From: Azolla caroliniana
Lineage: Eukaryota > Plantae > Polypodiophyta
Length of the DNA: 64,000 nucleotides
Direction: 5' to 3'
Assembly (NCBI GenBank): GCA_043228905.1
Contig: JBHGNT010000016.1
Location: forward strand, 9,114,001 to 9,178,000
Below the pieces are notes generated by a model that ran no database searches, was not told the DNA's origin, and was given only the letters and a program-made list of their open reading frames with translations. Shown here piece after piece: positions 13,598-54,918 of the stretch; positions within the stretch are counted from its first letter, which is position 1, and every line of letters begins with the position of its first letter. A program made the translations under genes and the position numbers.

Positions 13598-15412
13598 GTG
13601 TGCATACTTGTTACTTGGTTGTTTTTTATTTGAGTCTTTACTTAAAATATTTTTATTAATAATTACTTGTTTTTATGTATTTTATATGTACAGGAATCAT
13701 GTTGATTTTTGACAAGTTAACGACAATAGTGGTTGCAATTGGAGATCTTCAAAGTCATTGTAATTTTTATTATATATTGTTTACTATTTTGTTTTTTATT
13801 CGATTCTTTAAATTTGTTATTACGAATTACTAAATTCTTTTGCGTATTTTATACTTTCAGGAATCCCTTATTCAAACATTGGAAACAAAAAGTTGTATTA
13901 AGTTTACATATATGGTCTTACGGATTTGGAACTCTATTATATGGATTGTTGTTCTTAAGTTACATATATGGATTGTTACATATATAGATTTGAAGTTTGA
14001 ACTCTATTGTATGGATTTTTGTTATCGTTCCAAAAAACATTTATCTTTTTATGTTATATCTTATCATTTTCACAAATTAGCAATTTTCAGAAAATGTGTT
14101 GTAAATTTCTGAGATTTTATAGTGTTCTTTGATTTGGTTCAATTTATAGTTTCATGTTGGTTGGATTATGTCAAAAATAATTTGGTTTGGTTTGGTTTTG
14201 ATTTTTGATAAACCGGTTCAGTTTGGTTCTACATTTTACATAACCGGCTTGGTTTGGTTTGGTTTGGTTTCAAGGTCAAGAAACCGAAGCGAACTGAAAC
14301 CGAACCGCGCCCATTGCTACAGGTACCTAAGTATCCACTTTACTCTGGCCAATGTTCTCGTCCTAGATTACTCATGTATCATCGTACTACTCCCACAACA
14401 AATGCTATGTCTGGTCTCGTACAAACCATAGCGTACATCAAATTGTTGATGGCCAAGGCATACGATACTTTCCTCATCTCAACCTTTTCTGTCTCCCTTC
14501 TTAGGCATTACTTAGCATTCATCTCACAATTTGTCGGCAACACAGAGCTAACCGGCTTCGCTTCTGACATGTTGAATCTCTCCAAGATCTTTGTCATATA
14601 CTTATCTTGTGACAACCACAACACTTTCTTAGTTCTATCCCGAACTTTGTGCATCCCCAAAATCTGTTTGGCCGGTGTCGTAGTGTATTTTGTACACTAC
14701 GTGAAAAACTTATAAAGTACCAATTTAATAAATATGAATAAATAGTAGAAAATATTAAAATTTATATAACATGCATAGGGCAAGATTCGAACCTTGCACC
14801 TCCATGTTAATAATGTAATGTCTTACCATTACACTAGCATTTCATTTGTGTTTAAAAATAGATGTTCCACATAGAAAGCTTAGTTCACCTAGGATAAACT
14901 TTAGTTAAAAGAAAACGCATGCTAAAAGAAAAAGCTACACATGCACATCTAGCGTGCATGAACGCTATAGTTGATAAAAAAAAACGCACAAGTTAGAAAA
15001 AGCATGATCACTTTAGATAAAGCATATAGTCTATCTATAGGAAAAGCATGGGGTCTATAGTTAGAGAAAAAGCATGGATTACTAAGACTTCCTCATCACT
15101 ACATAAGGATGGGAAGCACAATGTAATTGTGTGTGAAAAATATTTGGAAATTGGATATATTTCCTAAAACACCAATTAATAAACTATACTCGTGGGATTC
15201 ACGAGATTTCTATATCTTTCTCTATCAATCTAAATACATATTCTTACATAAATATTAATCAATAAAATACATTATACTTGTGGGATTCACAAGTTTCTAA
15301 TAATCTATCCATTACTAGCCTCATCTCATATTCTTCTTTCTCCTAGTCCAAAACCCCAGTGGTTCCCACCCGACTCACGCAAACGATCCGGAGTCGAAAA
15401 GCATGACACAGT

Positions 15413-15430
15413 TGGTGAACCCGACGTGAA
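15413..15430 (+). promoter_or_regulatory. Primer binding site, tRNA-Trp
   Basis: TGGTGAACCCGACGTGAA matches the complement of the plant tRNA-Trp 3' end (recalled, not searched); identical 18-mer on the minus strand at 58840-58857. Confidence 0.85.
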
Positions 15431-15446
15431 GACGGGTGGCAAGGAG

Positions 15447-17228
15447 ATGGAGGCTCAACAAGCTAACAATATGATGGCGATGTTCGAACGAATGCTACAA
15501 GAACAACGCGAGATGTCGGAGATCACGACAGTAGTACAACGGCTCGTGCAACAGAACGGGCAATTCGATGGAAAGGACGTGTCACGCTATCTACGTGACT
15601 ACAAAATGGAGATGTTGCGATATGGTATCTCAGAAAGATTGCAAGTGTTATCTTTCAACCGGGTGGCTACGGATGAGCTTCAAGAGAGAATCCACGAGGT
15701 ACGGCAACAAAGCCCGATGTGGGAGTCCTTTGAAGAAGCTATACGAGACACATATGACTATCTAAGACCGAAGCGGACGAGGACATGGTCCACGAACGGC
15801 GGTCAACAGTGGGTGAAAAGCGGCCACCGACTACCACCGAAGGAGAGCTTGATGCGGAAGGGTTCGGAGATGCATGAAAAGTCGCAAGTCGACATTGAAG
15901 GGGAGCTTAAAACCGAACCAAAGTCGAGGCCAACAAAGGATGAGGAGGAGGAAGATCAAGGACAAAAGGGTATCCCCACACCGGTTCCAGAGACTTCGGC
16001 GGTTGTGCCCGTGCACCAACGTGAGACCGGAGAGACGAAATGTGTCGGCGGAAAAGTGGAGGACCGGAAGGGCAACGAGGAAGACAAAGTAAATGAGCAC
16101 GAACGAAGGGATTCCTTCACCATTGTTTCGGAGACTTCGGTACTCGAGCCCGGGTGTCGACATAACACCGAAGATAAGGAAAGTGGCGGCAACGAAACGA
16201 AGGTCGAAGCCGATGCATACGAAGGAGAGATAGCCAAGGAGAATATGGCTATGGGTGAAACAACGGAAGATGATAATACCGAGGATTCCTACCCACTAAT
16301 TCTAGAGACTTCAGCGGTTGTGTCCGAGAACCAACGTGAGACCGGAGAGACGAGAGGTGGCAGCAAGGAAGGTAAAGTCCGAAGCCGGTTCGGATGGAAG
16401 ATGATCCATCTGAAATTCCGATGTAAACAAAAGCATGACAACGCGAAGGTCGGGTCTACGATGGGAGAAGCATGTAATACGGAGCACGCACTACGGCACC
16501 AAAAGAAGCACGTGCTACGGCGTAAAAAGAAGCACGCGCTACGGTGCAAAAAGAAGCATGCACTACGGGGTAATACGACGCATGCACTACGATGGAATAC
16601 GAAGCATGCGCTACGGCCTAATACGACGCATGCGCAACATCGAGAAATAAAGCATGCATTAAAGCCGCACAAGGACCTAACAGCGAGCGCGTATTCGGAG
16701 GTCGACATCGACGCGTGGGTAGAACCTACGGAAGACAAGCGCGGAGTGGAGAGAGACAACACACCGAGATGCTCAAGAGTACCACAAGGGACCATGACAA
16801 CCACTCATGGCAATGCAAAGAATGAACGAAGATTATGGTGGATCGGATGGCGACAATGGTTCGGGTGGAAAGATTGGATGTGCTCAAAATGGAGAGACAA
16901 AGCCGACATAGCAAGAGAAACGGAGGGTACTACAAGTAAAGAAGAATTACGAGGGCTGGTAATTGGAGACTGGATAGAGCCTGCAATCGAACAAAACTGG
17001 AAACCGGGCGAAGTCGACAACCAAAAACGGGAGACCGAATGGGGCCGACAACCAAAAATGACCAGCGACGAAACCAACCATGCAGAGAATGGACGGACGA
17101 GACTAACAATCACCGACAACTTCGGCACATACCGGAGGATGTGCGGGTTCGGAGGGGGCGAGTGTCGTAGTGTATTTTGTACACTACGTGAAAAACTTAT
17201 AAAGTACCAATTTAATAAATATGAATAA
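15447..17228 (+). CDS. Gag N-terminal domain fused to a long novel charged, repeat-containing tail (593 aa)
   Basis: N-terminus GQFDGKDVSRYLRDY resembles GQFDGRNVTKFLDAY of the Gag at 58445-58804; uninterrupted frame, stop lies inside the 3' LTR. Confidence 0.8.
   Translation: MEAQQANNMMAMFERMLQEQREMSEITTVVQRLVQQNGQFDGKDVSRYLRDYKMEMLRYGISERLQVLSFNRVATDELQERIHEVRQQSPMWESFEEAIRDTYDYLRPKRTRTWSTNGGQQWVKSGHRLPPKESLMRKGSEMHEKSQVDIEGELKTEPKSRPTKDEEEEDQGQKGIPTPVPETSAVVPVHQRETGETKCVGGKVEDRKGNEEDKVNEHERRDSFTIVSETSVLEPGCRHNTEDKESGGNETKVEADAYEGEIAKENMAMGETTEDDNTEDSYPLILETSAVVSENQRETGETRGGSKEGKVRSRFGWKMIHLKFRCKQKHDNAKVGSTMGEACNTEHALRHQKKHVLRRKKKHALRCKKKHALRGNTTHALRWNTKHALRPNTTHAQHREIKHALKPHKDLTASAYSEVDIDAWVEPTEDKRGVERDNTPRCSRVPQGTMTTTHGNAKNERRLWWIGWRQWFGWKDWMCSKWRDKADIARETEGTTSKEELRGLVIGDWIEPAIEQNWKPGEVDNQKRETEWGRQPKMTSDETNHAENGRTRLTITDNFGTYRRMCGFGGGECRSVFCTLREKLIKYQFNKYE
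16475..16666 (+). repeat. 24-bp x8 in-frame tandem repeat encoding (KKKHALRx)-like units
   Basis: Units such as TAAAAAGAAGCACGCGCTACGGTG. Confidence 0.92.
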
Positions 17229-23580: not shown

Positions 23581-26500
23581 ACGGTGGAGAAAGTTTTGGA
23601 GAAAATGGAGAAACCAATCAAGATAAACCTGTGCCGACATGATAGGGAACAACTGGAACCGGTGCCGAAGGCCCACAGGAAACTGTGGAAGAGGAGGAGA
23701 TGAAGAAACCCTCCAGCGTCGGCCGAGGCAACGCAAATACGAGCAACATGGGGAAGAATCGGGTTCGGGAAACGACAGTACACTAATTTCCCGCTCAACA
23801 GTGGTGGAGCCAAGACCGGAGGTAGAGACAACAGAAAGGCCAGAAGTGGTGAGCATGGTTCAACATGAACCAGACAAGGAACGACATACATCACCGGGTC
23901 TTCAGACACAACTATAGCATGAAGAGCGCCGACCGGAACGAACACCAGAACAAGAAGGGCCGGTTACACCGAGGTTCGGAGAGGAGCAAGGATGGATGCA
24001 AGAGCCAGTACGATAGTTCAATGTGTTGAAAGAAATCGTTTGGTCAAATCGGAGTGTATATGAACTACGCGCTGAAATATGAATCACACAAGGATGCTAG
24101 AAAACAAGTTCAAACAACTATGCACAGAGATTTACGTGGAAACCCTAAAGCGGGGAAAACCACGTGAACCGATCTTTAGTATAGACAGTGGATATACAAC
24201 AACAGAGAGGATTACAACACTCTTCCGAGTGGATCAGCCACACAGGGCTCTTCGCATTTGTTGTTACTCACACAACTATGGTGCGGCTCACACTTCTCTC
24301 TCACTCACTTTGCACACACACACTCATAGTTATGTTCTCTTCTATTCTGTATCTTAAGGTTTTCCCTAGTTGCATATATATTTACACAACTTTCTGGCTA
24401 TTTACATACCTAGCCCTCATGGGGCGCACATTGAGACTATTTACAAGTATAGTCTCCCGATTTGGCTATATACATGATTCTGGTTTCGGCCTCGGCCGAG
24501 TCCCTCATCAACTCGGCTCCTCTCTCTCCCCATCTAGAGTGATCTGTTTCCTAACATCATCATTATTATTACCATAATAATAATAACAATCGAATCACTG
24601 TTTTCGACCCTTCGACAGTCGGCTTTCCGAACAGTCGGCTCTTCCTCCCACTGGAGGGACATATTCCCAACACATTGTACTCACAGAACACGGAACCTAC
24701 CGGAAATGGCTGGAGTGGCACGGAAAGCAGGTTTCCGGTGTGGTTGACCGGATGGAAGCAGAATGAAGGCGAGAGCCGGAGAAGGCCGAACGGTTGTTGG
24801 CAGCAACCGAGGAATTATAAAAGGCCTAGAATCAAGAGGAGTTGGCCAAGATCAAGGAATTAGCTAAAATTATGGCAAACATGGGCCAGGGCACCAATTC
24901 AGAAATGGAGTAGGTAGAACCGGAAAATATACAAAAGCAAGCTCCAAAAAAAGAAGCAGAGCCGAAGGCGAGCACAACCCCGGTAAAAGAACGTGAGCGG
25001 GAGAAGGAAATGCAAATGCTAAAAGACAAATTTGCCGCTCAAGAGGAATTAAAGGAGAGAGGGAGAGAACTGATGAAGAAATCCGAGGAGGAGAAGAGGA
25101 GAACCAAAGAGAGTCTTTGGAAGATTCAGGGAAGTTATGACAGGTTGAAAGATGAGAAGGATAGCCTGCTGCAAGAGAAGGATAAGTTGTGGAGGATGGC
25201 GGAGACAGATATCAAAAGGCTAAAGGAAGAGATTCGACAGTAGAAGGATCGGGATGATCGATTGCAGTCGTAGGTCAACCAATGCATAAAGCTGGAAACG
25301 GAGGACTTCGAGAAGTTTTACCGGGAGCATAAGTAGGTGGTGGCGGAACACAAGAAGTTGGGGTTGGATTATGACTAGCAGCAAGAGAAGCTCAAGGAGG
25401 CCCAGACGGAGTTGAAAGAGAAAACAGAGGCATTGACGGACCAAAGATGGATGATGGGGGAGACAACGACAAAGGTGTTGGAGGAGGTGTCGAAAGAACG
25501 AATGGAGCTTACGTCGCAACTCTATCAGGAGTTAGAACGGGAAAAGACGGTGTTGGATAGGGTGCAAATGACCTACCAAACCAAACTGATGGAGTATGAA
25601 GTGCAAGCTAAACCAAATGACCTCATCAAGCAGCTAAAGAATGAAAAAGCAGCCACGGAAGACAAAGTCAAAATGGGCATTGGAAGAATTCGGATGCTGG
25701 TAGGAGCATGGAGGGACTAGACGAAAACAAGAATAGTCCACTGTTCAATGATAGTTTGGCATCAATGGTTGAATGAAGCGGCAGAACTCCAACTACTCCG
25801 AGCAGATGCGGCAAACCGGAAGGATAGAGACAATTTCTATAAGATGGATGAGGGAAGCATAGTCACCATCTAGGAGGAATTGTCGGAGGATTTTTATGCC
25901 TTGGCTGACACATAGATAGAGGAAGTTCGGAAACTCCTCAACGGACTTGAAGATGATCAACTCGATGTGCAACTACAACTGGAAGGATATGAGTGGGAAT
26001 GCCGGAGGAAAGAAGCTGCACGGCGGGCGGAGCAAATCAACATTAATGATGAGGAGTAGCCGACAGAGGGAAGACCCCAACAACCAGAGTTGGAGTCGGA
26101 TCAGCAGATGGAAAGCGCTGGAACGAGCCAGATAGAAGAGGCCAGAATGGAAAAGATGGAAAGCACCAAAACGGAGACAGAAGGAGTCAGAACCAAAAAG
26201 ACGATGGGAGCTGGACTAGGACAACAATTGTCTCAACAACCGAAGCAACAACAACAGATGGAAGAATGTAAAAGATTATGTGCGGAAGCAATAGAAAACC
26301 AAACACACAGAAAATATGCAGGTTTAATGGAGAGCTCGAGTATACACAGTATGCGGGAGAGACAGCGAGAGAACACACAGAAAACTCAATTCAAAAAATA
26401 CTAACTCTGTACATACACCATGCTCAGTGAGACCTTTTATGCAAGCCCTGACAATCGGGCTGACACAAGTACTGACAGTACTTGACTGCTCATAAATGAG

Positions 26501-27225
26501 CCTTGACACTCACTCCCAAAATTATTCCTTATGAGGAATATCTCTTTAACGGCCTTTCGGTTTACGCACCAATACGGCCTCTTGTTACGCACCGGTTTGC
26601 GTACTGGTTTACGCATCCGTTTTACACACCAGTCCGGCCTAACCGATCGGTCCCAACCAATCCGGTTCTCGGCTTGCACAGCCGATCCGGCTAATGTTGA
26701 GCTTGTATCTCAACAAAGAAGAACCGTTCAAGCCCTTGGATTAGAGTATACTGGACATGGTCGATGAAGACTAAAGGAGCTAACCCATGGGTTCGACGTG
26801 CAATACATTGTCCCACGGGCGTGCCATGTGTTGGCCAAGAAGTATGTTCCGGACAAGTAATATGGACGGGGATGAGTCGGAGTATAATAATATAATTAGT
26901 AGCATAATTATTAGTTAAGTAATATTATAGGAACGGACGGATCCGGATAGTTGTACCGATCTGAATCCGCACCGATTGATAGTCGGTAGGTGTTTCTGTT
27001 CTTAATTGTTATACCTCGTTTACTTGCCGTTCGGTGCTTAAACTCTTAATCTTATGCGTGTTATAATTAATCGATTGTGTAATAAATAATCCGGAAGACA
27101 TCCGGGAATAGTCGGATCGGAATCGGATAAAAACCGAATAGCATCCATATCCTAACCACCCCTTTGGAGAAGTGTTTCGGAACGGATACCCTGTGTTTGT
27201 GGCTAAGTCCAGCCCAGGAAAAACA
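23581..27225 (+). mobile_element. Athila/Tat-like Gypsy, 3' part: degenerate coiled-coil extra ORF and 3' LTR (26829-27225)
   Basis: E/K/Q-rich ORF fragments homologous to the reverse complement of 43650-46188; LTR TGTTGGCC..AAACA. Confidence 0.72.
24024..24672 (-). mobile_element. Copia solo LTR, 649 bp
   Basis: TGTTG..CCCAACA; end GGAGGGACATATT as in LTR 6756-7440; TSD CAATG / CATTG. Confidence 0.85.
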
Positions 27226-28158
27226 TATAGAAACCACCTGGTCAACTATTTCTCGATTTCAACGCTATCAGTCCCCCCTCTTTCTCTGTCGATTGGTGTT
27301 TCGACCAGTTCTTTCAGCTTGTTCTCTTGATCGGTCAATTTGTCTGATCGACTTAGTCAAGTAGTGGACTTCTACTGACTTGTTGGTGGTGAGTCCCATC
27401 GATTTTTGCCGAATGTGCTCCGTGAGCACTTGTTCGTTTGTCTCATCTAGATTTAGATTTGGACAACTATTGGCAAAAGTCGTAAAAAATACCTCCCAAC
27501 TCGCCCGTAAGCTTGAAAGGAGGGTAAGGGCTTTACCTTCTTCTTTGAAGTTTATCCCTTGGGAGGATAGTTCAGACAACACCCGGTTGAAGGTGTTGAT
27601 GTGAGAGATTGCAGGATCCGTCTCTCTCATCTTCATATTGAACAATTGTATGAGCTTTGATGAGGAGGACTTCCTTTCATAAACGGCTTGGAGCTTCTCC
27701 CACAAGGCAAAGGACGACGTCTCTTTGGCCATGCTTAAGTAGACGTTCTTGGCTAGATGCATTCGGATGGTTGACCTAGCTATTTCTTCCAGGGAGCCCC
27801 ATTCGTTTGCTATCATCGAAGCTGGCTTGTTGGTGTGCCATATTGCCTCGATTTGACACTGGATGGTTAGTACATCTTGCATCATCTCCTTCCATAGGAA
27901 AAAGTTTTTGTTGTCAAACTTTCAGATTTCTACTCCTATGCCGGATGTTGAAGCCATGTTTTGTTGGAAGTGAGATTTGTTGATCTGGTCCTTTTCTTCA
28001 GCCGTTTATTCTCTTCTCAGATTTATGCTACTATTGTTGTTGAACCGCAAGTCGCTCTGATACCACTTGTTGAGTATGGAGTGAATAATGTGGAATTTGA
28101 GGACCTATTGGTTAGTCAGACAAGCAAGATGTATAGCAGATGGACAAGTTAATTATGC

Positions 28159-29243: not shown

Positions 29244-32200
29244 TGTGATGTTGATCACGACGTACGCGTGCAACGGAAAAGAAAGTTGTGAATTCGGGAA
29301 GTAAACATCGAGCTTCTTGTCAAAGGAGGAGAAACGAAATAGCTTGTATTGATAATTCAAAGATGATTACAATAGTATTTCTTGCCTATCTGATTACAAT
29401 CATATTTCACGTCTATATTTCCTCCCCTTGATATTATTACTCACCCCCCGTTTTATACATGAGGAAGGAGGGTGCATTAGTGCCAAGTGTCACCCATGCA
29501 TAAGAGGCACCCACATTAGTAGGTAATAACTTTAATAGCTAAAATACTTGATAGCAGTAGGATAATAGCAAAAATGTGCTGTGAATAGATTTTTGTCTTT
29601 AAAAGTGGGTAATAGCTTTAATAGCTAAAATACCTGATAGTGAAAATAACAAAATGTGCTGATGATAGGTATTTAGCTTTAAAAGTGGGTAATAGCTTTA
29701 ATAGCTAAAATACCTGATAATGATAATAGAAAAATGTATTGTAGGTATTTAGCTTTAAAAGTGGGTAATAGCTTTAATAACGAAAATACCTGATAGTGAT
29801 AATAGCAAAATGTGTTGATAATAAGTATTTAGCTTTAAAAGTGGGTAATAGTTTTAATAGGTTAAATACTTGATAGTGATAATAGCAAAATGTGCTTTGA
29901 ATAGGTATTTGGCTTTTTGATATTATGTGATAGTGGACAATAGCTTTATTAGCTAAAATACCTGAGAATAGGTATTTAGCTTTAAAATATTCTACTTTGA
30001 TATTATGTGATGGCGGGCAACAACTTTATTAGCTAAAATACCTCAGAATAGGTATTTAGCTTTAAAATATTGTACTTGATATTATGTGATAGTGGGAAAT
30101 TATAGCTTTATTAGCTAAAATACTTGAGAATAGGTATTTAGGTTTTAAATATTTTACTCGATATTATGTTTTTTTGTAGATTCAACTAGGTATTTGCACA
30201 TAATATTATCATCCTCTGGTGACTGATTCTTATCAAGTTATTAGCTATTGCTTAGCTAAAAAACCATTTACAAAAGATTTGAATTAGTTCGTATAATGTA
30301 GTAGAGGTTATTTTCTCATCGTGGCACGAAAACGTAACCACATCCTCCCCCACTAGACCTACGCATTCTCTGGCATGCATCAACAAACATCTCCTTCTTC
30401 AGCTTCATGGATGTCGTCTTCACTAAGGAAGTTTGTGCTTTGATCTTCCCTTTTCTTGAATACGTTAATTTGCTTCCCTGCAATCGGCAACCTTAAAGCA
30501 GCTCCATCCATTTCAGTTAGGAAATAAGTTACATTTTTATTTACTTGTCTAATGACATATGGTCCATAGCATCTTTTGGCAAACTTGCAAGACGTACTAT
30601 GTTCGTTATCCAAGATGCTATCATATAGTATGACGCAATCACCTTCTTGGAGCTTTCTTCATTGAAGGCGATGGGCTTTGTAAAATCCTTCTTTGTTTCG
30701 TAGTTGACATTGTTTCATCCTTGCTATAGCTATTTGAACATCTTCATCTCTTCTTTCTAGTTGTCTTATTCTAAGAGCAAGAAAATCTCTTCTTCTTCTT
30801 CTTCTTCTTCTTCTCATCCATTGTATTAGAGAAAGCATTGATTGTTTTATTAATTGGAAAACATTTTAGTAGGGAACGGAAAGCTTTGGGGCCATTGTGT
30901 CCTTGCCCATCAATGATCCTATTTAAAAATGCAACTCATAAGATGACATATCATGTCCACACGAGTTAATTCATAATTCTTCTTTATTTCTATCCTGCTC
31001 CTGCCTAACAATAAGAAATTGAACACTCCGTTTACCATCGGTACTTCGAATCCTACCATATGTCGAACCACCTTCAAGCACCTTCGTCTCCATCCTAGAA
31101 GATGTGATGTATGGTTGACCAAGAATCACTGGGTATGACAAAGTATTTTGGATAATGAAATGTTGTTCCATTGGCCCATCTCCAATGGTGATTTTGATGT
31201 TCGGGCAAGCTCCATGAAGTTCCTCGGTCATTGAATTGGCCAATTTTACCCTCCACCCATGATCCGTTTCCATTGGCCATCCGCCTTTCCTGTAAATATC
31301 ATAAGAAATTAGATTAATTTCTAAGTCTTGGTCGATTAAGGCCAGGACGGGATCTTCAAGGTTTCCAATATTCATGGGTGTCTCAGTTGTTGCTCTCGCC
31401 CAATGTTTCTTAGCATAATAGCTTTTTAGCTCTTTCGGCTTCTCTTCAAAAGTTATCATCACTATAGGTTGTGTACCAACAATGGAAGAGCTTGGTTCAC
31501 CTTTGATGACTTCCAACGTTGATTTCTTCACTTCACTTCCTAGGTTTTCAGTGGCTTCAATACTTTGTCGTTTACTTTTAATCCCATCTATTATTGCATC
31601 ATGAAATTCCTTTTTAACTATGCCCAAAAGCTCCCTCAAGGAAAGCTCCACCTTGCTATTTAAAATTCTTTCTTCCAATACTTTTTTCAAATCTGTTGAA
31701 GTTTCAATATCTGATAATAATCTGAAGTTGGGACTTTTCTTATCCTTACTTTTTTCAACGTCTGGGCTTACTATTTTCAGATTTTCTATCTCCATCTTTT
31801 TAGCGCTTCTTGGCTCCCACTTCTTGTTTTCATTTTCTGCCCTTTTTCGTTTCTCTTCCATGACCACTTCATGGGCTTGGTTTGTTGCAACCTTCGCAAA
31901 AGCTAAGAGGCCATCCATTGGATCTTCCCACCCAATATCGCTTCGGAAAACATCACCTCTAGACTTCAAGTTTTCAAACTCAATTTTACCCTTTCTTGCA
32001 GTTTTTTAAATACATGGCCAAAAATCAGATTCGGATCCTCATTCACCAACATGGATGACTGTAGTTGTTGGTTGATAGATAGCTTGTGTCCTAGTTGTTT
32101 CCGCATCCTCCATGATCCTTCTCATACCACCTCTTCTAAAGTTTACTTCAGAGAGATAATCAAGTTTCAAAAGAATGAATCTTACAATCTTTGAAGAATA

Positions 32201-33536
32201 TCACTCCTCTATCTATCGCTTCTTGATAGTTATCACACCCTCCTCTTGAATGGTTGACGCTATCACACCATATGCATCTTCTTTTAGAATCTTTTTGGGG
32301 TTGTGAGGATTTTTCTTCTTGTAGCCTTGTAACTTGTAACTTACCCAATCATTAGAACTTGTTGCGAGTTCAAAGACTCTATTTCTCAAAGGGAGTTCAA
32401 CCATCCTCACAAAATTCATTTGAACATCATGTTGGTTTAACCCTTTACTTCCCATCTCAGTAACATATACTTGTAGGAATTTAGATATATTTTTACCTTC
32501 AAAGAGACCTATTTTCTCTACAAGCTTTTCAATAGCATGATCGATTCGTTGAAGAGCAGTTGCACGTTCTTCGGTTTGCATCATTCTTTCAATCATTTGC
32601 AACATCACGTTGATTTGTGGCTCCACAATGACTTCTTGGTTGATTCGTGGCTCCGAACTACTTGTTGGTTCTCCATCTCTCTTAACTTCTCTGGTTCACC
32701 ACTATGATGTTGATAATGGCATACGTGTGCAATGGAAAAGAAAGTTGTGAATCCAGGAAGTAAGCACCGAGTTTCTTGTCAAAGAAAGAGGAGGGACGAA
32801 ATAACTTCTATTGATAATTTCGAGTTGATTATAATAGTATTTCACATCTATATTTCCCCCCCTTGATAAGACTACTCACCCCCCTTTTATACATGAGGAA
32901 GGAGGGTGCATGAGTGCCAAGTGTCACCCATGCATAAGAGGCACCCACATTAGTAGGTAATAACGTTAATAGCTAAAATACTTGATAGTGATATTAGCAA
33001 AAATGTGCTTTGAATAGGTTTTTGGCTTTAAAAGTGGGTAATACCTTTAATAGCTAAAATACCTGATAGTGATAATAGCAAAATATGTTGATCATAGGTA
33101 TTTAGCTTTAAAAGTGGGTAATAATTTTAATAGGTAAAATACCTGATAGTGATAATAGCAAAATGTGCTTTGAATAGGTATTTGGCTTTTTGATTTTATG
33201 TGATAGTGGGTAATAGCTCTATTAGCCAAAATACCTAAGCATAGGTATTTAGCTTTTAAAATATTTTACTTGATATTATGTGGTAGTAGGCAATAGCTTT
33301 ATTAACTAAAATACCTGAGAATAGGTATTTCGTTTTTAAAATATTTTACTCGATATTATGTTTTTTCGTAGATTTGACTAGCTATTTACACATAATATTA
33401 TTATCCTCTAGCAACCAATTCTTATCAAGTTATTACCTATCGCATCGCTAGACAACCATTTACAAAGAATTGAATTAGTTCGTATAATTACGCAGAGGTT
33501 ATTTTCCCATCGTGACGTGAAAACGTCATGGCAACA
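29244..33536 (-). mobile_element. Internally deleted Gypsy (Trp clade) with tandem-repeat-rich LTRs
   Basis: LTRs 29244-30342 and 32703-about 33536; PPT 30343-30351; short PBS TGGTGAACC at 32693-32701; gag, PR (ALIDQDLEINLIS) and INT C-terminus present; RT and RNase H absent. Confidence 0.85.
29520..30170. repeat. About 80-bp and 70-bp tandem units with internal hairpins inside the LTR
   Basis: AAAAGTGGGT at 29601, 29681, 29757 and 29837; GCTAAAATACCT..AGGTATTTAGC inverted pairs; fewer units in the partner LTR (about 32960-33360). Confidence 0.9.
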
Positions 33537-42370: not shown

Positions 42371-43136
42371 ATATCTTTTTCACCGAGTATATAGACATGG
42401 TTTTTCAGATATAGGATGCAAACTTCTGGTACCACATCCCCGACACTTGTTTTAAGCCGTAAATGCTTTTCTTGAATCGACATACGAGGTGACCTTCCTC
42501 CCTCGTAGCCGAGAAGCCTACCGGTTGAAACATGTAGATGTCTTCTTCCAGATCTCTGTGTAGGAATGTCATCTTTACGTCCATCTCCTCGAGCTCTAGG
42601 TCTTCTGTCGCCACGACCCCAAGTAGGAGCCGAAGGGCGGTCATCTTGAATATTGGTGAGAATATCTTGTCGTAGTCGACCTCATGTTCCTGTTTGAATC
42701 CCTTTGCGACGAGCCCAACTTTGTATTTGGGCTTCTCCGAATCGAATACATTTTTGTATTTGAATACCCATTTGCAGTGTAGCACCTTCCTTCCAGCTGG
42801 TAGTTCGACCAACTCCATGTATTGTTCTGATGGATCAAGTACATCTCGGACCTCATGGCTTGTAGCCATGTGTTGGCGTCTGCTGCGGCTATGGCTTCCT
42901 TGTAGGAGCTCAATTTGCCTGCGTCCGTGTACTTGATGTAGTCTAGGCTTGGTGAATAGGACTCTGTCGGCCTTTTGACTCATGTGGATCTTTTGGGTGC
43001 GGATTTTGTTGTTTCGATTTCATCAGTCGATTCAGTCGACCCATTGGTATTTTCTTGAACCACCTCCAGGAGTCCTTCAGGATGACTCGCCCCTGTAATA
43101 CGATTTCTGCGATGTCAAATCATCTTCCCCTGTTGT
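42371..43136 (-). pseudogene. Copia RT N-terminal fragment (probable 3' part of element A)
   Basis: ELVELPAGRKVLHCKWVFK..EMDVKMTFLH..KSIYGLKQ in ORF 42405-42983. Confidence 0.85.
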
Positions 43137-46100
43137 TGTCACCGGCTGGACAAGCCACTAACAGAGGGTGTCCCTTTAGAACACTTCACCAAAGGGGTGG
43201 TATGGTAAGGAATGTGCAGACCGCGATACAGGACCGATCCTTCCCGGAGCGCTCCAGAATGATTAACTTGATACACGCATATGATAATCACAGTAAGTGC
43301 AGAATGGTAGTAACAAGATACACAATATGTAAAGACACAACACTTCTCTATTCATTATCCATTGTCAATTACATCATCTCCGGATCCTTTTATAGGTATT
43401 TGGTTGTGCTACAAACCGGTGCCAACCGGCAATTGGCTACGAACCGGTCCAGATCCAGTTCGGCATACTGATTCCAGGTCTGTCTGTCCGATCTTATAAT
43501 TATCATAACGATCTTATAATTATCATAATTTCTCTAATTACAACTCCCAAAACCGGCTCCCTTTTCATACTCTAGCCTAACCGGCCAACAAATGGCACAC
43601 CCGTGGGACAATACATTGTACGTCGAACCCATGGTTAGCCCCTTCATTCATCCTCCAAAATGTCCAAAATGCTTTGGTCTAGGGGCTCCAACGGTTCATC
43701 GGATAGTTGCTCCATCGGCTACTGTTGTTGCTCCTCCGGTTGTAGTTGCTGTTGTTGTTGTTGTTGGTCTTCGGCCTACTCTTCCTCTCTAGCTCTATCC
43801 GTATCCGGCTCTACTGGTCCCGACGCTCCTGACTCCACCTCCTCCGTCCTTGGCTCCTCTTGCTGCTACACTGGGGCTTTGTCTGCCTCCTCCGATTTGA
43901 CTTCTTTTAGCTGTTCCACTTGGTCTTCGTTTGGTTGGCCTCCTCCGGTCGCGGCTACATTCGGTGGCTGCTCTGGAGATTGCTCTCCATCACTGATGTT
44001 AATTGCCGCCGACATTTGCGATGCTATCTATTGTCTTCGCTCTCGTTCGTATCGCTCAAGCTGAAGTTGAGTGCCAAACTGGTCATCTTCTAGCTGTTCT
44101 ACCAACTGCCTAACAGTTGCCAATTGTTCCCCTGCTAGGGACAAGAAATCGTTCGACAACTCCTCCTAGATGGTTACAATACTCTCCGCATCCATCTTGT
44201 AGATGTTGTCACCATTCTTTCTCCAGTTTTCCGCATCCGCTCGCAATGTCTGTAATTCCACTACCTGTTGTGCCCATTTTGAACACCATTGCACTGAGCT
44301 TTCACCAATCATACTCTTTGTTCGTTCTTTCCATCCTAGCACAATGGCGCGGATCTGGTTGAGCCCCATCTTGGATTTGTCCTCCACAGCCTACTTTTCC
44401 TCCTTTAACTTCTTTATCAAGCCCGTGGTTGCTTGTGCTTGCACCTCATATTCCAGGATTTTAGTTTGATAAGTGGTTTGAACTCTGTTCGGTCCCTTGC
44501 TGCTTCTTCCAGTGCCTTTGCGATGTCGACTGCCTTGGTCCATTCTTTTGCCAATGCCTCCGTCACCCTGTTGACTTCCTTTCGGAGTTCCCCTAGCTTC
44601 TCCTACTGTCGGTCACCTTCTGCCATCAACTTCTTGTGCTCCGTATCCAAATACTTGTGATCCTAGTGCAGTTGTTCAAAATCCTTCATCTTCTGCTTCA
44701 GCTTTTACTTTATTTGGCGTCTTCCCCATCTTTCTGCTGTTAGAGTTCTTCCTTGAGCCGCTCGATTTCGGTCTCCACCGATCGCCGGAGCTTATCCTTC
44801 CCTTGTAGCAGCTTCTCCTTTTCTTCCTTCAACCGGTCATTTACTTGGTAGCTTTTCCGGAGATTTTCTTCGAGTCTTCGTTTCTCACCCTCAGCTGCCT
44901 TCTTCTGCTCTCATTCTCTAGCCCGCAAGGCCTCCTGGGCTTCTAACTCTTCCGTGAGAGTGGAGAGTTCTTGCTCCCATGTGATGCTTGTGTCCGGTGT
45001 TGTAGGAGCTAGCGGCGGGTTATCTGTCTACTCAATCACCGACGCCACCGGTTCTGGGCCTATTGGCCCCTGATTGACATGTCTGGCCGTGTCTGCTTTG
45101 GCCTTCTCAATTTCTTCCTCCATGCTCCGGATCCTTGACTGGGCCTTCTCGAGTGCTTTGGTTGTGGTGAACAACCGATCCCGTTGTGCTCTCTCTCCCG
45201 CTTCAATTTGGCTTACAACCCCGACCACCTGCTCTCCGATCCATCGAAGCCATTGACTGTCGGTACTTTGTTGCCTTGCCAGTTCCAGTGTTGGCTCTGC
45301 TCTCGCCACCACCCCTGGTTGGATTGTTGTTTCTAGCGGCAACTCCTCTTCTTGTTGTGCCTGCTGACCCGATGAGATTGGTACTTCTCTTGCCATTACT
45401 GGTTGATCCAGCTCGGTTTCCTTCATTGGCTCTGGTTCCTCGAAGTGGGGTGTCGGTGTGCTGTCTTTTACCGGTCCCAATTTGTTCCCCTTTGGCTCTG
45501 TGTCGCTTCTCTTCTGACAACGTAGGGGAGTGTCAGCGTTTTCTTCCTCTGCCTCCTCCTCTTGCGTTCTCATGTTTATCCCTTGAGCCAAGTTAGGCGG
45601 CTCTTGCTCTTGCCTACGCAATTCGATTTTGAGAGGCCTAACCGGTTGTGCTACCGGTGCCTCTGTCTTCGTAGGCCTCTTCCGACTGGGTTGCTCCTTT
45701 CCTTTCTGTGATGAGCCTCCCTCTGTCCAACCGAGCGCGTGCTTGGAAAGGAGTAGTTTCTGCTTTGATGGCTTGTTTGGCGTCGTATCGGCCTTTCAGA
45801 CCCGTAGCTTTGCCCTTTAATGTCAGCACTGGCGGTACAAGGAGAGTGAGACATTGAGCCACTGTTGTTTGTCCACACCTTCTTGCTGTCTACCACCGAT
45901 TGTATGGCCGCTCACAAACAATCAGTGATGATTACGGGTCAATCCACCTTTACCCCTTTCTATGTTGCGATGATGAAACCAACTTTGTTCTTTGGCATTG
46001 TCGGGAGTCGGGGGTGCACAAACCCATACTCGTGGAGCCCCTGAGCTACTTCTCGGAACAAGGCATCGTTGCCGCCCTGTGTCCGGTACGCTTTGCTGGC

Positions 46101-49100
46101 CAGGGAATACTCCCCGAAGAAATTCGTCAGCGTCTCTGGGGACTCTCAATGGAGTAGGTCCCTCCTTCTGGCAATCCGATGAAAGCGCTGTCGTGAAGAT
46201 TTTTGGCAATGGTGTGAAAATCAAATAAAACTACAAAAAGATGGAGGTCTTCAAGAGCTTTCAAATGTGCTTTACCACATAAAAAACGGACATCTAAGTG
46301 ACAAGTTATGTGGGAGTGAAGTATGAGAAGGAAGAAGAGAAAAATAAAACTGTGAGATATCCCACGTAGACAGGAAATAAGGATCTCACCATATATAAGG
46401 TAGAACAAAAGCTTTTATCTTTGTGTCTATGTGTGGAGCATAGAGATTTAAAGGTGACTTGAACTAAGCTATTGGATGAATGGGTGTGGCCTGACTACTT
46501 GCGAAGGTTTTGCCCAAGCAAAACCGGACCGGCAACGTAACCGGAACCCGGACCCAGTGACCGAACGGTAACCGGCGAACCGGCGTCATCTGGCGGCATC
46601 CAACATCCGACGTCATCTGGCATCCGGCGACCGGATAGATATATAAATAAATAAATAAATATATGTATACACATATATATATACACAAAGAGTGCAAGTG
46701 TAGATTTGAACCTTGCACCTCCAAGTTCAGAGTCTATAGGCTTACCACTAAGCCAAGACATTTTCTTGAAATAATATTTTTATCATTGTAACTTTAAATG
46801 TAAATTCTCATACATGAGAGCTAAAATGAGTGACGTGGTTATCATGCACCACATGTAATACATGAGTGCCAAATGGCAAACATGCATTTTATGCATGTCT
46901 TGAACCCTCAAATGCATGAGGGCATCTATAAAAGAGGGGATGAAAAAGATCAAAAGGGGGAATTTTTGTAATGTAAATTTTTTGGAACCTTTGTACTTGA
47001 TATTAAAATTAAAATTAAAAGTAAGAAATTCATTATCCAGTTGATGATATATCTTGTCTCTCAAAAACTCTCTTTTTCAATCTATCTTAAATCCTTTCTC
47101 GCTAACTCTAGCGCCAACTTCGAGTCCTTCTGGTCCAGAACCCCGGCGGTGCCACCTCACGATCCGCGCATAGTGACGTATCTTCACGACAACACGGATA
47201 GCATCCTCCATGATTACTTCTAGGTCGATCTTTTTCGCGACCTTTTCTGCTTCTTCGTGCGGAGATGCCTCTGCTGTCCATAAGAAACCCTCCAAGCCAT
47301 GTTTGTGAACCATTTCTTGGCCGTCGCGGAAAGCGCCATGGGCTCCAGCGTGTCCTCTGTTGCGGTGGTGGTGGAGAGCTTTGGTGTGCCTGTGGTGGCT
47401 TCTGGTGTTTTCCTAATCACCTATATCCGCCTCTGTGTGCTAAGTGCTCTATGTTCGCGAAATGAGAGAGACTCTGTTATGCGAAGGTTTTGTGTTCCCA
47501 TTCTTGCCGCGTTTTCTCGAGTCCCGCACCGTTCTTACGAAGGTTTTGTGTTCCCATTCTTGCACGTCGTGTCTTTTAATAGTGGTTGTGTGCCGCATGG
47601 TGGGCTTTAAATGCCTTACGTCACACCGTTTCAAGGCGCCCGTTCATTTTTTTAATGGCCTACATTTTATTTAATTTTTCCGCTTGCATGGTGGCTTTAC
47701 TCCTCGCCCTTGCATGATGTTTTTTTCTTTTTCTTTTTCGTGCGTGGTATTCTAAACCCTTGTATCCAGCAACACTGGATCCGTTGTATGTTCCTCCTCC
47801 TGGTTGCCGGTTATCTGCTTGCCGTTCCCGGTTCCTGTTTCGGCATCCGGTTGTCTAAATGGGTTCCGCGGCATTAGTCCGTAATACGCGTTCCTAGCTT
47901 ATACGAGCCGTTAAACTCTCGTGTTATCCAGTAAGGTCCAGTCCACCAAAACCGTAGCTCTCCCGGCATTTTGCCCATCCGGGTCTGAAATACTAACACC
48001 GTCTTGCCGATTCCGAACCTTTTCTCATTCCCTTTCCGGTGCCGGTCAACGAATGCTTTCCGTCATCGTTGCTCGAGTTCCAACTGCAAAATGCTAGCTT
48101 TCCGGTGTTCTTCTAATTCGCACAATGTCGTTAATCGAATTTTCTCCTATTCCTTCTCACTTAACTTTTCCCGTACTTGAATCCGCAAACTCGGAATTTG
48201 AAACTCTATCGGCATGACCGCTTCTAATTCGAAAGCTAAATGGAATGGTGTTGTCTGAATACTTGTTTTGTAGGCGGTTCGGTAACCCCACAACACAAGG
48301 TTTTGTTGGTGGATTCGGCCAATCCGTTGGCTTGTGGATAGTAAGGTGTACTTTGCTTGTGTACGACCGCATAAAATGTCATCAAGCTCTCTACTACTTG
48401 ACCGAGGAAATGTCCTCCTTGATCACTGATCAGTTCTATTGGGCATCCATACCGGCACCAAATGCACTCGTATAGGAACTTGGTCGTTGAGGCCGCGGTA
48501 TTATCCCGGAGTGCCTTTGCTTCCACCCATTTGGCGCAGTAGTCTGTTGCTACAATGATATACCGGTTCCTAGTCCGCATTGCCGGAGGTTTGAATGGTC
48601 CGACGAAGTCCAATTCCCATTTTTGAAACGACTCCAGTGGTAACACCGGCTGGTGTGGCATCCTTGCTTGTTCCGTTGGTTGGCCCATCCGTTGACATAA
48701 GTCGCATTCCTTTGCATACCAAATCGAGTCCTTCATTGTTGTAGGCCACCACAATCCACTTCGCCATATCTTCTTTGTTGTTGCTTCTCCGGCATAATGT
48801 CCTCCGGTGACTCCACAATGAGCTTCCCGTAAAATTGTCTCCTTTTCATCGCTCTAAACCGCTCTTCGCCATATACCGTCCGCTCCCTTGTGGTACAACG
48901 TATCCTTCAGTAAATAAAAATGTCAGCTTTGTACCACCAACCACGTCCGTTTGTCCCGGTTTAGTTCTTCCGGAGTCAATCCGGTGCTTAAAAATTGATG
49001 CATATTCGTCAGCCATTTATCTTGCTCGGCCACCATCCCGTCCACTGTATTCTTCGCTATTACCCTGAATAGTTGCGCATCCGGAAGGTCGTCTTTGACG

Positions 49101-51720
49101 CTGTTGCCAGCCTCTCCGGATTCTGACCGGCTCAAATAATCCGCGACCGCATGTTGTACTCCCAATCTCTGGTAAATCTCGAATTCGAACTACTGTAGAA
49201 CCAGCGTCCATCGTGCTAGCTTGCCGGTTAGCGATGCCTTGGCAACCAAGTAAAGTAAAGCTGAATGATCTACGTGGAATGAGAATTTCCATCCTAGCAA
49301 ATAGTGACGGAACTTTGTTACGTTGTATATCATTCCCAAGGCTTCCCTTGGGAGAGCTTCCGATTGGCGTGGTAAACCGGCTGGTACCACTTTGGTTCGG
49401 TGAGCTGCATAAGAATGTTGCCGATCGCGATATCCAATGCATCCACAAACAAATGAAATTCCTTTGACCAATCCGGGGGTTGTACGACCGGTGCTTAAGA
49501 CAACATTATTTTGAGCGCATTGTATGCCTTATCCTCCGGTTCTGTCCATTGGAAAGGTGTCGGTGTACAACTGCGTGTAGTGGTGTCACAAGATCGGCCA
49601 AGTATCGGAGCATCCGGCTATGCCAACGGATTTGCCCTAAAAACCGGCTTAGAGCTTTGGCGGTTGTTGGTGCCAGTGCTTTCAGCAATCCCATCCTTAC
49701 TCACAATATAGCCTAGTAGTGTGCCGTTGGTTACCCCGAATACGCATTTCGCCAGGTTCAAACTTCGCCGGTAACCTCTGCATTTCTCCAGGTATAACCA
49801 GAGATGGTCAAGATGTTCTCCTTTCCTGCTGCACACCGCAAAGTCATCCAAGAACAGTTGCATAAACGCTGGGATAAATTCCCCAAAAATTTCCATGATG
49901 ATTCGTTGGAACGTTGCCGGTGCCATGTTTAGTCCAAACATCGTCAAGAACCGCTACAAAGACACCCCATTCGGTGACGAATGTTGTTTTCTCCTGATCA
50001 TCCGGGTGCATCCTGATTTGGTTATACCCACTAAATCCTTCGAGGAAGCTATACACCTCGTGGCCTGCTACTACATCCAAGACTCCATCCGTGAATGGGA
50101 GTGGGAATGCATCAGTGACAGTGGTAGCATTCAATTTCCGGTAATCTACACAGACTCGGATCTTTCCGTTTTTCTTCGGTACCACCACGATCGGGCTTAG
50201 CCAGGTGGCTTTCTTCACCGGCCGGATGAACCCAATCCGCAGCAACTTATGAATCTCTTCTTTTACTTTAGCAACGTAATTCGGATTCATCCGGTAACAT
50301 CTCTGCGCTACCGGCTACCGGTAACTGAATCTGGTGTTGATATAATTGCGGGTCCCGTTCCTGCATGTCTTCATATGACCACGCAAATACGTCCATGAAT
50401 TCTTTCAATAATGTGATCATTGCCGATTTCTCCTCCCGTGGCATTTCCTTGGCCACCTGCACCGATCTTGCCTCTTCGTTGGTTCCCAAATTCACTTCTT
50501 CCAATTGTGATGCTTTCACCCATTCTGATACCACCATCTCCCGCTCTAGGGCCTCTTGTGCTTGTCGTAGTTCCCAGATCGCGTCCCTATCCGGTTCCTC
50601 ACCGGCATCCTCCGGTTGCCCAATATATGGGGACACCGCCTCTGCTACGTCTACTTCGAACAGAGGGACTATCCCTGGGTTTTCATCAAGGTAGCAATCT
50701 ACCTCCTCATCGGCAAGCCCTTCCAGCATATTCACGCTTTCGGCATATAACAATGTTACTTCCTTGCCTGGGCCCGCTTGAGGGTGCGTGGGTACTCTGA
50801 CCTTAGTTTTCCCACTTTGAAACGTAATGTTGTTCTTTTGCCAGTTCTGTTTGATGTGGGCGGTCTGTAACGATGGTCATCCCAACAATAGTGGGTATGC
50901 TCCCTACGCATAAAACTGGAAGACGATGGCAGAAATCCAGAATGCATGGCCTCAGATTATTACCTCCAAATCCCGGATCAATCTAGCCGATCATACTGAG
51001 TTGGTGTCTGCCATCCGGAGCCAAAACGGGCATGGTTCCCATTCTTGGATTCCAAGAGTGTTGCATGTTCGGAGGCTAATTACGTTTACTCCCGACCCGC
51101 CATTGATGATAATGGTGGTGATTGCGGGACTGCTGGTATCGACCACGGCCGGCCCTTCCTCCGGATTTGAAAAGAACATCGGAGCTGATGTGGGGTTTGG
51201 TGGGGCCCATGCTGATTTTAACCCATCGGTGAATCAGGGCACCAATTGGAGTAACCGACCCAATGGTAGCATGATCTGGCATTCTTGTAATGCCCACCAG
51301 TGGGGTTATCCTATTGCGTCATCTCTGTAGGTTCCTCCAATGCGTTCCTTTGCTCCTTCAGTTCAGTAACATTCTGTTCTTTTGCTTTTCAGATCCACTT
51401 CATAGTTTGTTTGTAGATAGCTTCCTAAGCTTCCCATTCAAACATCTTTCCCTTCGATTTAGTGGTGACTTGCTGGATGTCCGCCACTTCCGCAACCACC
51501 ATGTTGACTGCCGGTCATTTGTCGTGACTCTTTACTAGACATTGGTTGCTGTAGTGTCCCTCCTGGCGGCAATAGTAGCAATACGCCTTCCATGTATTGC
51601 TAGACTTTGCTTTTTGCATGTTACCTAGTTGAAATCCGGATTCCAGCCGGTTAGGCTCCTCTACTCTTCTTTGTTCCGTTTGAGCACTAGTTATGCTTCG
51701 GTCCAGCTCTCATTGGTAAA
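43137..51720 (-). mobile_element. Athila/Tat-like (non-chromovirus) Gypsy: gag end, PR, RT, RNase H, partial INT, extra coiled-coil ORF, 3' LTR
   Basis: Zinc knuckle CYYCRQEGHYSNQC near 51540-51585; RT WLSPIVVVPKKNGKIRVCVDYRKLN..FLDDF; INT KWELDFVGP..YYPQANGLAE; E/Q-rich ORF pieces 43650-47420; LTR 43137-43590 with minus-strand TATAAAAGG. Confidence 0.85.
46189..47191 (+). mobile_element. Solo LTR, about 1 kb, TGTCGTGAAG clade
   Basis: TGTCGTGAAGAT..ATCTTCACGACA; homologous to the reverse complement of 58866-60044; flanks GCGC / ACAC. Confidence 0.9.
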
Positions 51721-53404: not shown

Positions 53405-54918
53405 ATCGATGCCGCCGGATGCTGTCGGTTACCGGTGCCTCGCCGGATGCCGTCGTCTCACCGGCGCCGGATACCGGTGCCGCCGCCGGATGCCGGATTG
53501 CCGTCGGATGCCGCCGGATCACCGGCTCCATCGCCGGTCCGGTTTTGGTTGGCCAAAACCCTTTACGAGTAGCTAGCCCACCTCCACTCTAGTTCAAGTT
53601 ACCTTGAACTCTCTATGCTCCACACATAGACACAAATATAATATCTTTTGCTCTACCTTATATATGATGAGAGCCGTATTTGTCGTGCCTATGTGGGATA
53701 TCTCACAATTTTCTCTTTTCCTTTTACAAACTTTATACCCTCATATCTTGACATTTAGTTGTTCGTTTCTCGTGTAATAAAGTGCATTCGAAACCTCCAT
53801 CATTTTGTACTTAGATATTAAATTTATTTAAAATGTTATCTTCACAATTATTGTATTATGTGATTCATACTCGATTTCGTACGTTTTATGTGATTTTCAC
53901 ACTATTGCCGAAAATCTTCACGACATCCACCCCCATCAAACCGCACGTCCACTGGTACGTGCCAAGAAGAGAGAAGGTGAGATTTCGGCTACGATGATCA
54001 ATTAGATTCCTCCAGGTCAACTTTTACATCCGCCCTATTATGTTCATCGTCCAGGTAATCGAGGTCAGGATCCTTGTCTTGTCTTTTCTTGAAAATCTTT
54101 ACTCTTTTTCCCGCAATGGGTACGACTAACCTTGATCCGTCTAGTTCCGCAAGGTGGTATGTGGCATTATCGTTGGCACTTGTCACCACATACGGCCCGA
54201 ACCATCCTCTTGCGAATTTCCTTGTTGTACTGTGTTGATTGTCAAGGGTGCTATCGTAAACCAAAACCCAATCCCCTTCTTCAATCTTATTGGGACGAAG
54301 TCGATGCGTGTTGTCGAACCGAACCTTGTTCTTTACTCAGGCTGCCTTTATCATCTTTCGCGCTTTTTCTAATTTCTTTCGGATTCGTAGGGCCTCCTCC
54401 TTTGTCAACGAAGCATCTGTCGTCAATGTTCTTAGGAATCTACCGATGAGTAACCACTCTCCTTCGTACTCGTTCTCGTTGAAGGCGTGGAGGGTTTGCG
54501 TGTCCTGGTCTTCTGCCGACAATTGAGCCATCTTGAAGAAGTCGAGGGAGACATCTTCATCTTCCGAAACCATGTTACTTCCATTTGAAAATCTTGCCCT
54601 CGACAGCATGTCAGCCATGGCGTTCTTCTTCCCTGCAATGTGACGGATCTCTGGGTTTAAAGACTTGATGTAGGTGATCCACCTTAGCATAGCAAGATCT
54701 GGGGTCGCACATCCCGAGACCATTCCGAGAATTGGGAGACAATCTGTCTCTATTATCACTTCGGACCCGATCAGGTAATCTTTGTCCATCTTCACTGCCG
54801 ACACAATACCCCAGAGTTCCCGCTTGACTTGGGCATATCTTTGTTGCCGTTCGCTGAGAACCTTTGCTCCGAACCGGATGGCATATCGCGCATTATCTTC
54901 ACCTTCTTGATTGATGAC

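Follow-up and report, generated by a model that had tools for sequence, protein, structure and literature searches.

Just before the 3' LTR of a clade of plant Ty3/gypsy retrotransposons lies a short motif that repeats the 3' part of a host tRNA-Arg(UCU), split by a hairpin. It is a real cis element under selection, situated in the PPT position of a recently active retrotransposon clade. The reading that we favor, with a probability of about 0.7, is that the whole clade has dropped the PPT and that host tRNAs prime both strands, with two arginine isoacceptors used by the youngest family and with a hairpin-split site that binds the tRNA only as a DNA copy. Judging from the sequences, the motif would probably be a second PBS, on the opposite strand, from which host tRNA-Arg(UCU) primes plus-strand DNA instead of the PPT. 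Such a tRNA-primed plus-strand step is apparently undescribed. No description of it or of the motif was found in the literature within our coverage, outside of which lie most subscription papers, bioRxiv supplements, and the element-level data of PMC6317226, and the available part of a work on moss TEs (PMC7466625) makes no mention of tRNA or PPT.

The motif and its partner copy in the window

The window, that is, the whole 64,000-nt stretch of Azolla caroliniana DNA that was analyzed, contains two copies of the motif, named here copy 1 and copy 2. The motif string quoted in an earlier, sequence-only reading of this DNA was found on the plus strand at window 26782-26836 (copy 2), and the features of both copies are as follows.

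24700..26300 (ends approximate), plus strand: remnant of the coiled-coil 3' extra ORF of copy 2, with many stops
26305..26715, plus strand: foreign repeat, likely the LTR of another element, inserted between the ORF remnant and the motif
26787..26796, plus strand: T-arm box, equal to host tRNA-Arg(UCU) positions 49-58, with G49 reading A in copy 2; within it, 26789-26796 reads GGGTTCGA; in minus-strand DNA, the complementary sequence would bind T stem and loop of the tRNA
26797..26809, plus strand: 13-nt insert between tRNA positions 58 and 59, decayed in copy 2
26810..26826, plus strand: tail GTCCCACGGGCGTGCCA, the tRNA-Arg(UCU) 3' end 59-76 including CCA, minus one C of the pair at 65/66; usual PPT position
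26827..26828, plus strand: 2-nt spacer TG between CCA and LTR
26829..27225, plus strand: 3' LTR of copy 2 (TGTT...AACA); homology to family copies stops at about 27225
43134..43590, minus strand: 3' LTR of copy 1, far end uncertain (43131-43137)
43591..43592, minus strand: spacer TT of copy 1
43593..43630, minus strand: motif of copy 1
44178..46133, minus strand: extra ORF remnant of copy 1, the span of two tblastn matches
47889..51233, minus strand: decayed PR-RT-RNase H-INT of copy 1, on the strand where the motif reads as tRNA; belongs to the motif-bearing RT clade

Both copies are truncated; copy 2 lacks the 5' part of the element, and 1072 nt separate its ORF match from the motif, compared with about 600 in relatives. 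The two copies are equal at 34 of 38 nt in the motif core and at 47 of 52 nt over a wider stretch. A strict motif pattern has 573 exact matches in the host genome and none when reversed, which is far above chance. ARAGORN found no tRNA gene in the window, so no complete cloverleaf is present, and Rfam gave no match at 26600-27300.

The sequence-only reading had placed the motif on the strand of the coiled-coil ORF, abutting the 3' LTR; this is borne out by PR, RT, and INT of copy 1 and by gag-pol of full-length relatives, all of which lie on the motif strand. The LTRs and neighboring DNA had been described as clearly diverged. This is correct for the LTRs, between which BLAST aligns only a 60-nt stretch close to U5's end (83%) and a few bases at the start, but too strong for the neighboring DNA, as ~65 nt upstream of the motif also align (79% over a 119-nt block). 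The claimed conservation of insert and spacer holds for their length but only in part for their sequence: 3 of the 13 insert positions are different, and copy 2 has TG as its spacer where copy 1 has TT.

Further repeats were noted in the window. Inverted pieces of the PR region (70%) and an inverted piece of a family Y LTR (51816-52053) disrupt the 5' end of copy 1 at 50188-53408. Two arrays of ~80-nt AT-rich repeats (29246-30335 and 32705-33526), resembling long terminal or subterminal repeats, surround a two-ORF stretch. A 658-aa frame at 15252-17228 contains a 24-nt tandem unit repeated seven times (16474-16665) and sits between 735-bp direct repeats that are 99.7% identical.

Architecture of the motif-bearing elements

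The order of parts in these elements, which was observed directly, is 5' LTR, tRNA-Arg PBS of 10-13 nt, gag-PR-RT-RH-INT, 3' extra ORF, motif, 2 nt, and 3' LTR. In copy E3 (L047+L048), two LTRs (95%) enclose gag-PR-RT-RH-INT and the extra ORF on the tRNA-sense strand of the motif, the motif immediately precedes the downstream LTR, and another tRNA-Arg site occupies the ordinary PBS position after the upstream one. Copies E9 and E14 of the young family Y have 420-bp LTRs that are 100% and 99.8% identical, with TG...CA ends and 5-bp TSDs. Pfam domains RVT_1, RT_RNaseH, Integrase_H2C2, and rve scored above their cut-offs and the protease below. The 3' extra ORF is intact in young families, where it encodes 920-980 aa with a coiled-coil C-terminal half (L045:994-3942, L242:202-2970), and matches no Pfam family above cut-off. 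When 40 further 10-kb regions were inspected, both LTRs and pol were present in 11, all in the same arrangement; pol lay on the motif strand in 21 of the 40, gave only opposite-strand matches in five, which we read as nested or neighboring elements, and was not matched in the rest. The possibility that the motif is a plain 5' PBS accompanied by an antisense ORF was ruled out by the full-length copies, in which gag-pol lies on the tRNA-sense strand and a separate PBS is present.

In a set of F2 copies chosen by the LTR start alone, a PBS follows 14 of 30 LTRs and the motif precedes the other 16, so that it is confined to 3' LTRs, with none in front of 5' LTRs. No PPT was found before the 3' LTR: the 15 nt preceding it average 8-9 purines, with a maximum of 10 (73 copies). 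The spacer, whose length of 2 was fixed by the regular expression used, reads TG at 62, AG at 51, GG at 42, and otherwise at 4 of 159 loci.

The 5' PBS matches host tRNA-Arg(UCG) or (UCU) over 13 nt in family Y, E3, and F2, the type in Y being UCG. Its match to the tRNA reaches 18 nt in copy E13 and in nine distinct UCU contexts with gag downstream; among the UCG 18-mers (85 matches in all), 30 of the 30 retrieved follow an LTR end after a 5-7-nt AT-rich spacer and none after 2 nt. The 5' site, often extended in this way, behaves as a minus-strand PBS. A search for undeleted tails located 2 nt upstream of an LTR gave 13 matches, none of them a motif repaired in place, with the insert kept and the C restored. 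Read-through copies of tRNA at U5 ends, from 56 nt to nearly the whole molecule, are fixed beside LTRs at L347, L105, L354, L099, and L031, and they indicate that read-through of A58 occurs also on the minus-primer side.

The motif as a tRNA fragment and its conservation

In comparison with the L038 gene plus CCA, the motif equals tRNA-Arg(UCU) positions 49/51-76 in the tRNA's own (gag-pol) sense, from which it departs by one missing C at 65/66 and by 13 nt inserted between A58 and G59. The host tRNA-Arg(UCU) genes were located by pattern, and ARAGORN confirmed 7 of 12 loci. A58 of tRNA is methylated and stops RT; in keeping with such a stop, the tRNA match ends at 18-19 nt in 23 of 30 undeleted copies retrieved with a pattern that required at least 18. 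Changes that distinguish whole families in the tRNA-pairing parts remain compatible with wobble pairing to the tRNA (T55C in 24 of 27 E copies and G69A in 30 of 30 F2 copies); the F2 motif also has a T60G mismatch to it, and in family Y1 only box positions 51-58 are kept. Genes for tRNA-Arg(UCU) and decayed copies are clustered, in places 0.5-1.5 kb apart, at G000:C4:19.35-19.66 Mb, C11:693-703 kb, and C22:1.43-1.50 Mb.

Conservation was assessed on copies chosen by the extra-ORF protein, blind to the motif, in three families, with the window-family and E sets each including their own query copy; sampling based on A1 gave only F2 among the 30 loci retrieved, so two further protein queries were added. 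The motif lies within 1.5 kb in 23 of 30 copies of the window family, in 27 of 30 of E (two more having the tail only), and in 30 of 30 of F2. In the window family, identity is 83% in the motif, 73% in the 100 nt upstream, and 67% in 100 nt of the LTR; these values come from ungapped copies (22 in the window family, 21 in E, and 30 in F2), and the dropping of 8 and 9 copies somewhat inflates motif identity. The F2 flanks are 94-95% identical. Between families, identity is 78-85% in the tRNA-derived part and 49-83% in the insert, whereas the LTRs, at 50-53%, are at the level of a shuffled baseline (54%). The motif thus exceeds its flanks both within and between families, contrary to the condition under which the sequence-only reading would have been refuted, and the earlier claim of a functional cis element under selection rather than a chance tRNA capture is upheld by this conservation as well as by the covarying hairpin. 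Short non-coding derivatives (L220, L226, L240, and L253; metagenome contigs) consist of a 330-bp LTR, a 10-nt PBS, ~2.2 kb of internal sequence, and the motif, and occur in tandem. The 43 metagenome stretches belong to one assembly series and include the same families, so they supply extra variants and no evidence of another species; viral contigs gave no match.

The hairpin

The insert folds as a 4-bp stem with a 3-nt loop, lengthened by pairs 58:60 and insert-1:59. Its covariation was observed directly in 70 distinct cores from 159 loci, obtained with a regular expression that restricted which letters could occur at 58, at 60, and in the T stem. Stem pair 3 is A-T in 42 and G-C in 28 cores and never mismatched; stem pair 2 is G-C in 33, T-A in 33, and mismatched in 4; and pair 58:60 is A-T in 54, C-G in 14, and mismatched in 2. 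In 13 chosen variants, both sides change in four of six hairpin pairs, and the three T-stem pairs (GGG/CCC) are invariant. Slid controls were paired at only 26-50%; relatedness inflates the shuffle test. Wobbles lean to the RNA strand, with U-G at the base in 28 loci of the commonest F2 core and, at stem pair 1, G-T in 14 versus A-C in 7 of 70 cores. Folding, which the sequence-only reading had proposed as a check, gave the 40-nt motif RNA alone no excess stability over shuffles (z from -1.47 to +1.32 in six of six variants). When the minus strand was cofolded with tRNA 46-76, with RNA energies standing in for those of the RNA:DNA hybrid, pairing formed on both sides of the looped-out insert in six of six variants, giving a three-way junction. 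From its sequence, the hairpin may also help the RNA to detach from its DNA copy, a role that would agree with the wobbles on the RNA side.

Host tRNA sequence fixed at U3

If a tRNA starts the plus strand and sometimes stays unremoved, host tRNA sequence is expected upstream of U3 in the native register, and this is seen at three independent loci, where the host tRNA sequence, not the element's variant, is joined to the U3 start over the 2-nt spacing. The first (G000:C2 12.00-12.02 Mb) has 57 nt of exact tRNA-Arg(UCU) with CCA, followed by TG, 5' LTR, PBS, and gag; its LTRs are identical at 418 of 419 positions, it belongs to family Y, with its own PBS for the UCG tRNA, and it is present in three copies via local duplication. 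The second (G000:C16 17.527 Mb) is an LTR-LTR junction of F2, found twice in tandem, which reads U5, spacer, an exact 18-mer in tRNA sense ending at A58, AG, and U3; F2's own motif differs from the tRNA at three places in that stretch. At the third (L352), ~64 nt of tRNA with three substitutions are followed by TG and a U3 like that of the window family. In addition, an 18-mer is joined to an internal site at L108/L361, and tRNA 13-58 is fused to the motif at L186/L359. Sites L098, L123, L135, and L349, which also have exact tRNA and a 2-nt spacer, were considered as U3 events, found to lie at U5 ends, and left out of the count. The sidedness of the tRNA copies is thus an observation. However, only three clean U3-side events (plus one ectopic and one hybrid) stand against several hundred copies, and these events could reflect side reactions, with some other primer normally acting at the site. 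HIV LTR-circle junctions, according to the available parts of PMC11680205 and PMC13332604, also carry insertions.

Retention of the element's own motif with foreign DNA upstream was not found with patterns that span ~40% or 12% of possible flanks in two families. These searches returned four matches (the F2 junction twice and two unrelated), none with two further patterns, five matches (the three host-tRNA copies and two indel variants), and four matches that are native copies.

Chimeras of another kind were seen at L087, L088, L086, and L097, where the sequence passes from an LTR end through an 18-nt PBS copy into the antisense of a 3' motif, continuing into family Y sequence in the first two and into motif-like insert and box in the others. 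They may have arisen when second strand transfer went to the wrong site, a complementary one; the missing C or the switch to UCG could keep such events in check. At G000:C8:19460356-19460389 and G000:C597:62-116, two tRNA-Arg(UCG) 18-mers are arranged head to head, one on each strand, and may represent fold-back or circle junctions.

Proposed mechanism and alternative explanations

In the mechanism that we propose, tRNA-Arg (UCG or UCU, depending on the family) would prime the minus strand at the 5' PBS. RNase H would then clear the RNA, and the minus-strand DNA copy of the motif would bind a second tRNA-Arg(UCU) via positions 61-76 and 49/51-57, with the insert looped out as a hairpin opposite A58-U60. 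From the CCA end, RT would synthesize DNA across the 2-nt spacer and on into U3. Normally the tRNA would be removed, and the motif would be inherited from the RNA rather than corrected to the tRNA sequence; upon failed removal, the minus strand would copy the tRNA and leave host tRNA sequence at the U3 end. From the sequence, both central steps are likely: a host tRNA would form a three-way junction with the motif's copy in minus-strand DNA, and plus-strand priming would proceed through the spacer. In favor of this mechanism count the position of the motif with no PPT, its recovery in motif-blind samples, the host tRNA sequence at U3, the wobble-compatible family changes, the T-stem pairs that stay invariant while the insert stem covaries, and the cofolded junction; against it count the RNA-side wobbles in the hairpin, the T60G mismatch of F2, and the shortened box of Y1.

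The main rival, which we regard as unlikely, although it has clearly more in its favor than any other, is a cis-encoded tRNA mimic: the element's own RNA, folded into a T-arm-like hairpin that ends in a 10-nt CCA tail, would survive RNase H and prime the plus strand as a PPT does, the host tRNA being only an occasional substitute. The hairpin covariation, including the change from A58:T60 to C58:G60, and the wobbles that favor the RNA strand agree with it. So does the 5' PBS, which at only 10-13 nt indicates that a short hybrid next to an intact T arm is enough for RT, and so does the presence in copy E3 of all four RNase H acidic residues, at the positions that we take to be theirs. However, the 40-nt RNA folds no better than shuffles, and T55C breaks the T-loop U, presumably universal in tRNAs at position 55. 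Moreover, within the flanks and the two families covered, no element motif retained with foreign upstream DNA was recovered by the kind of search that did recover a host-tRNA case.

Priming by a host tRNA is also to be preferred to a pairing of the motif with the element's own 5' PBS, in self-priming, circularization, or dimerization, with the plus strand starting otherwise. Families E, F2, G, and X do have a tail that is the complement of their 5' PBS, but the match is weakened in F2, the abundant young family Y keeps a UCU motif though its UCG-type PBS shares only TGGC with it, and the missing PPT is left unexplained; we consider this improbable. Slightly less probable still is an RNA polymerase III B-box promoter, a tRNA-processing signal, or a decoy, as in tRNA-bearing TRIMs. 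The motif does contain GGTTCGA, and the available part of PMC10886601 describes tRNA-like promoter sequence in Helenus TRIMs; however, the B box is split by the insert, the A box and the 5' half are not kept, family E has TCC for TTC, the motif, located outside the LTR, has its CCA end in a fixed register with U3, and the ARAGORN and Rfam searches of the window were negative.

The two weakest explanations are both very improbable. An inverted element, whose RNA would be antisense to gag-pol and have the motif as its real minus-strand PBS, is suggested by the other strand, which reads LTR end, 2 nt, and TGG..., just like a PBS, yet the end extended to 18 nt is the separate gag-sense PBS after the 5' LTR, in the UCU and UCG copies alike (9 contexts and 30/30), and the missing C is kept in the 573 matches and not repaired in place. 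A neutral relic of an old tRNA capture would suit the uniformity of young families throughout, as in the flanks of F2, but not a motif that is conserved between families even though their LTRs are no more alike than shuffles, changed in a compensatory manner, and kept together with the PBS in short non-coding derivatives (L220, L226).

Priming of the plus strand from an element-encoded PPT is regarded as invariant among LTR retroelements and retroviruses. If the favored reading is true, then a successful, recently active clade without a PPT would show that a tRNA:DNA hybrid can serve RT as a starting point for DNA and that removal of a tRNA can define U3 ends. The motif offers a defined 40-nt substrate for in vitro work. 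Annotation tools that seek a PBS and a PPT would mis-orient or miss these elements, and the elements would expose two sites to silencing by tRNA fragments.

Comparison with known systems

The motif families group as a single RT-RH clade (100/99) in a tree of 43 rows that includes two long outgroup branches. The nearest named protein is from Adiantum, a fern, which points to a plant, likely a fern, as host. The proteins of the motif families are 36-39% identical to named angiosperm proteins, which lie apart in the tree and which we take, from a motif, to be Athila-like. Among the Ty3/gypsy traits, TG...CA LTRs with a TSD, the order PR-RT-RH-INT, and a PBS after the 5' LTR are present and a PPT is not. 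No Pfam match to aRH or to a chromodomain was obtained in the RT-RH and INT frames of E3, aRH having been looked for between RH and INT. These features place the clade among non-chromoviruses near Athila, whose definition its PBS type and missing PPT do not fit, as its lack of aRH does not fit that of Tat.

With Athila, Tat, Ogre, and Retand, as described in the available parts of PMC6317226 and 10.64898/2026.03.20.713144, the motif families share GAG-PR-RT-RH-INT, a 5-bp TSD, a length of about 10 kb, a 3' extra ORF, and an AT-rich spacer before the PBS. They resemble Athila, in these same accounts, also in having no aRH, and Ogre/TatIII in having a tRNA-Arg PBS. Athila differs by its PBS for tRNA-Asp (72%) or tRNA-Asn (12%) and its conserved PPT junction, where the motif families have tRNA-Arg and no PPT, and the Tat clades (TatI-III, Ogre, and Retand) by the aRH that they carry and that was not seen here between RH and INT. 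Phygy and Selgy have a 4-bp TSD, a PBS for tRNA-Trp or tRNA-Ala, and no extra ORF, in contrast to the 5-bp TSD, Arg PBS, and 920-980-aa ORF found here.

Helenus, Ajax, and Cassandra TRIMs, so far as the available part of PMC10886601 describes them, are likewise LTR retroelements with small-RNA-derived sequence. Theirs, however, lies inside the LTRs and is read as a Pol III promoter, with PBS and PPT both present, whereas the motif lies outside the LTR in elements that have no PPT.

Like Ty3 and HIV-1, as portrayed in the available parts of PMC5371799 and PMC13332604, these elements have a tRNA-primed minus strand at a PBS after the 5' LTR, TG...CA ends, and a short spacer from the plus-primer site to U3. 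In Ty3, too, the PBS is usually not perpetuated from the tRNA (PMC5371799, in part). The difference is that the plus strand of Ty3 and HIV-1 starts at an element-encoded, RNase H-resistant PPT, and here a tRNA-sense sequence takes that position. The closest parallel to the split site is the bipartite PBS of Ty1 and Ty3, which the available part of PMC5371799 describes for the minus strand only: it is also divided into acceptor-stem and T-arm parts, in Ty1 with a small loop between them. That PBS is antisense to the tRNA in the RNA and serves minus-strand priming, whereas the motif is in tRNA sense and could bind a tRNA only as DNA.
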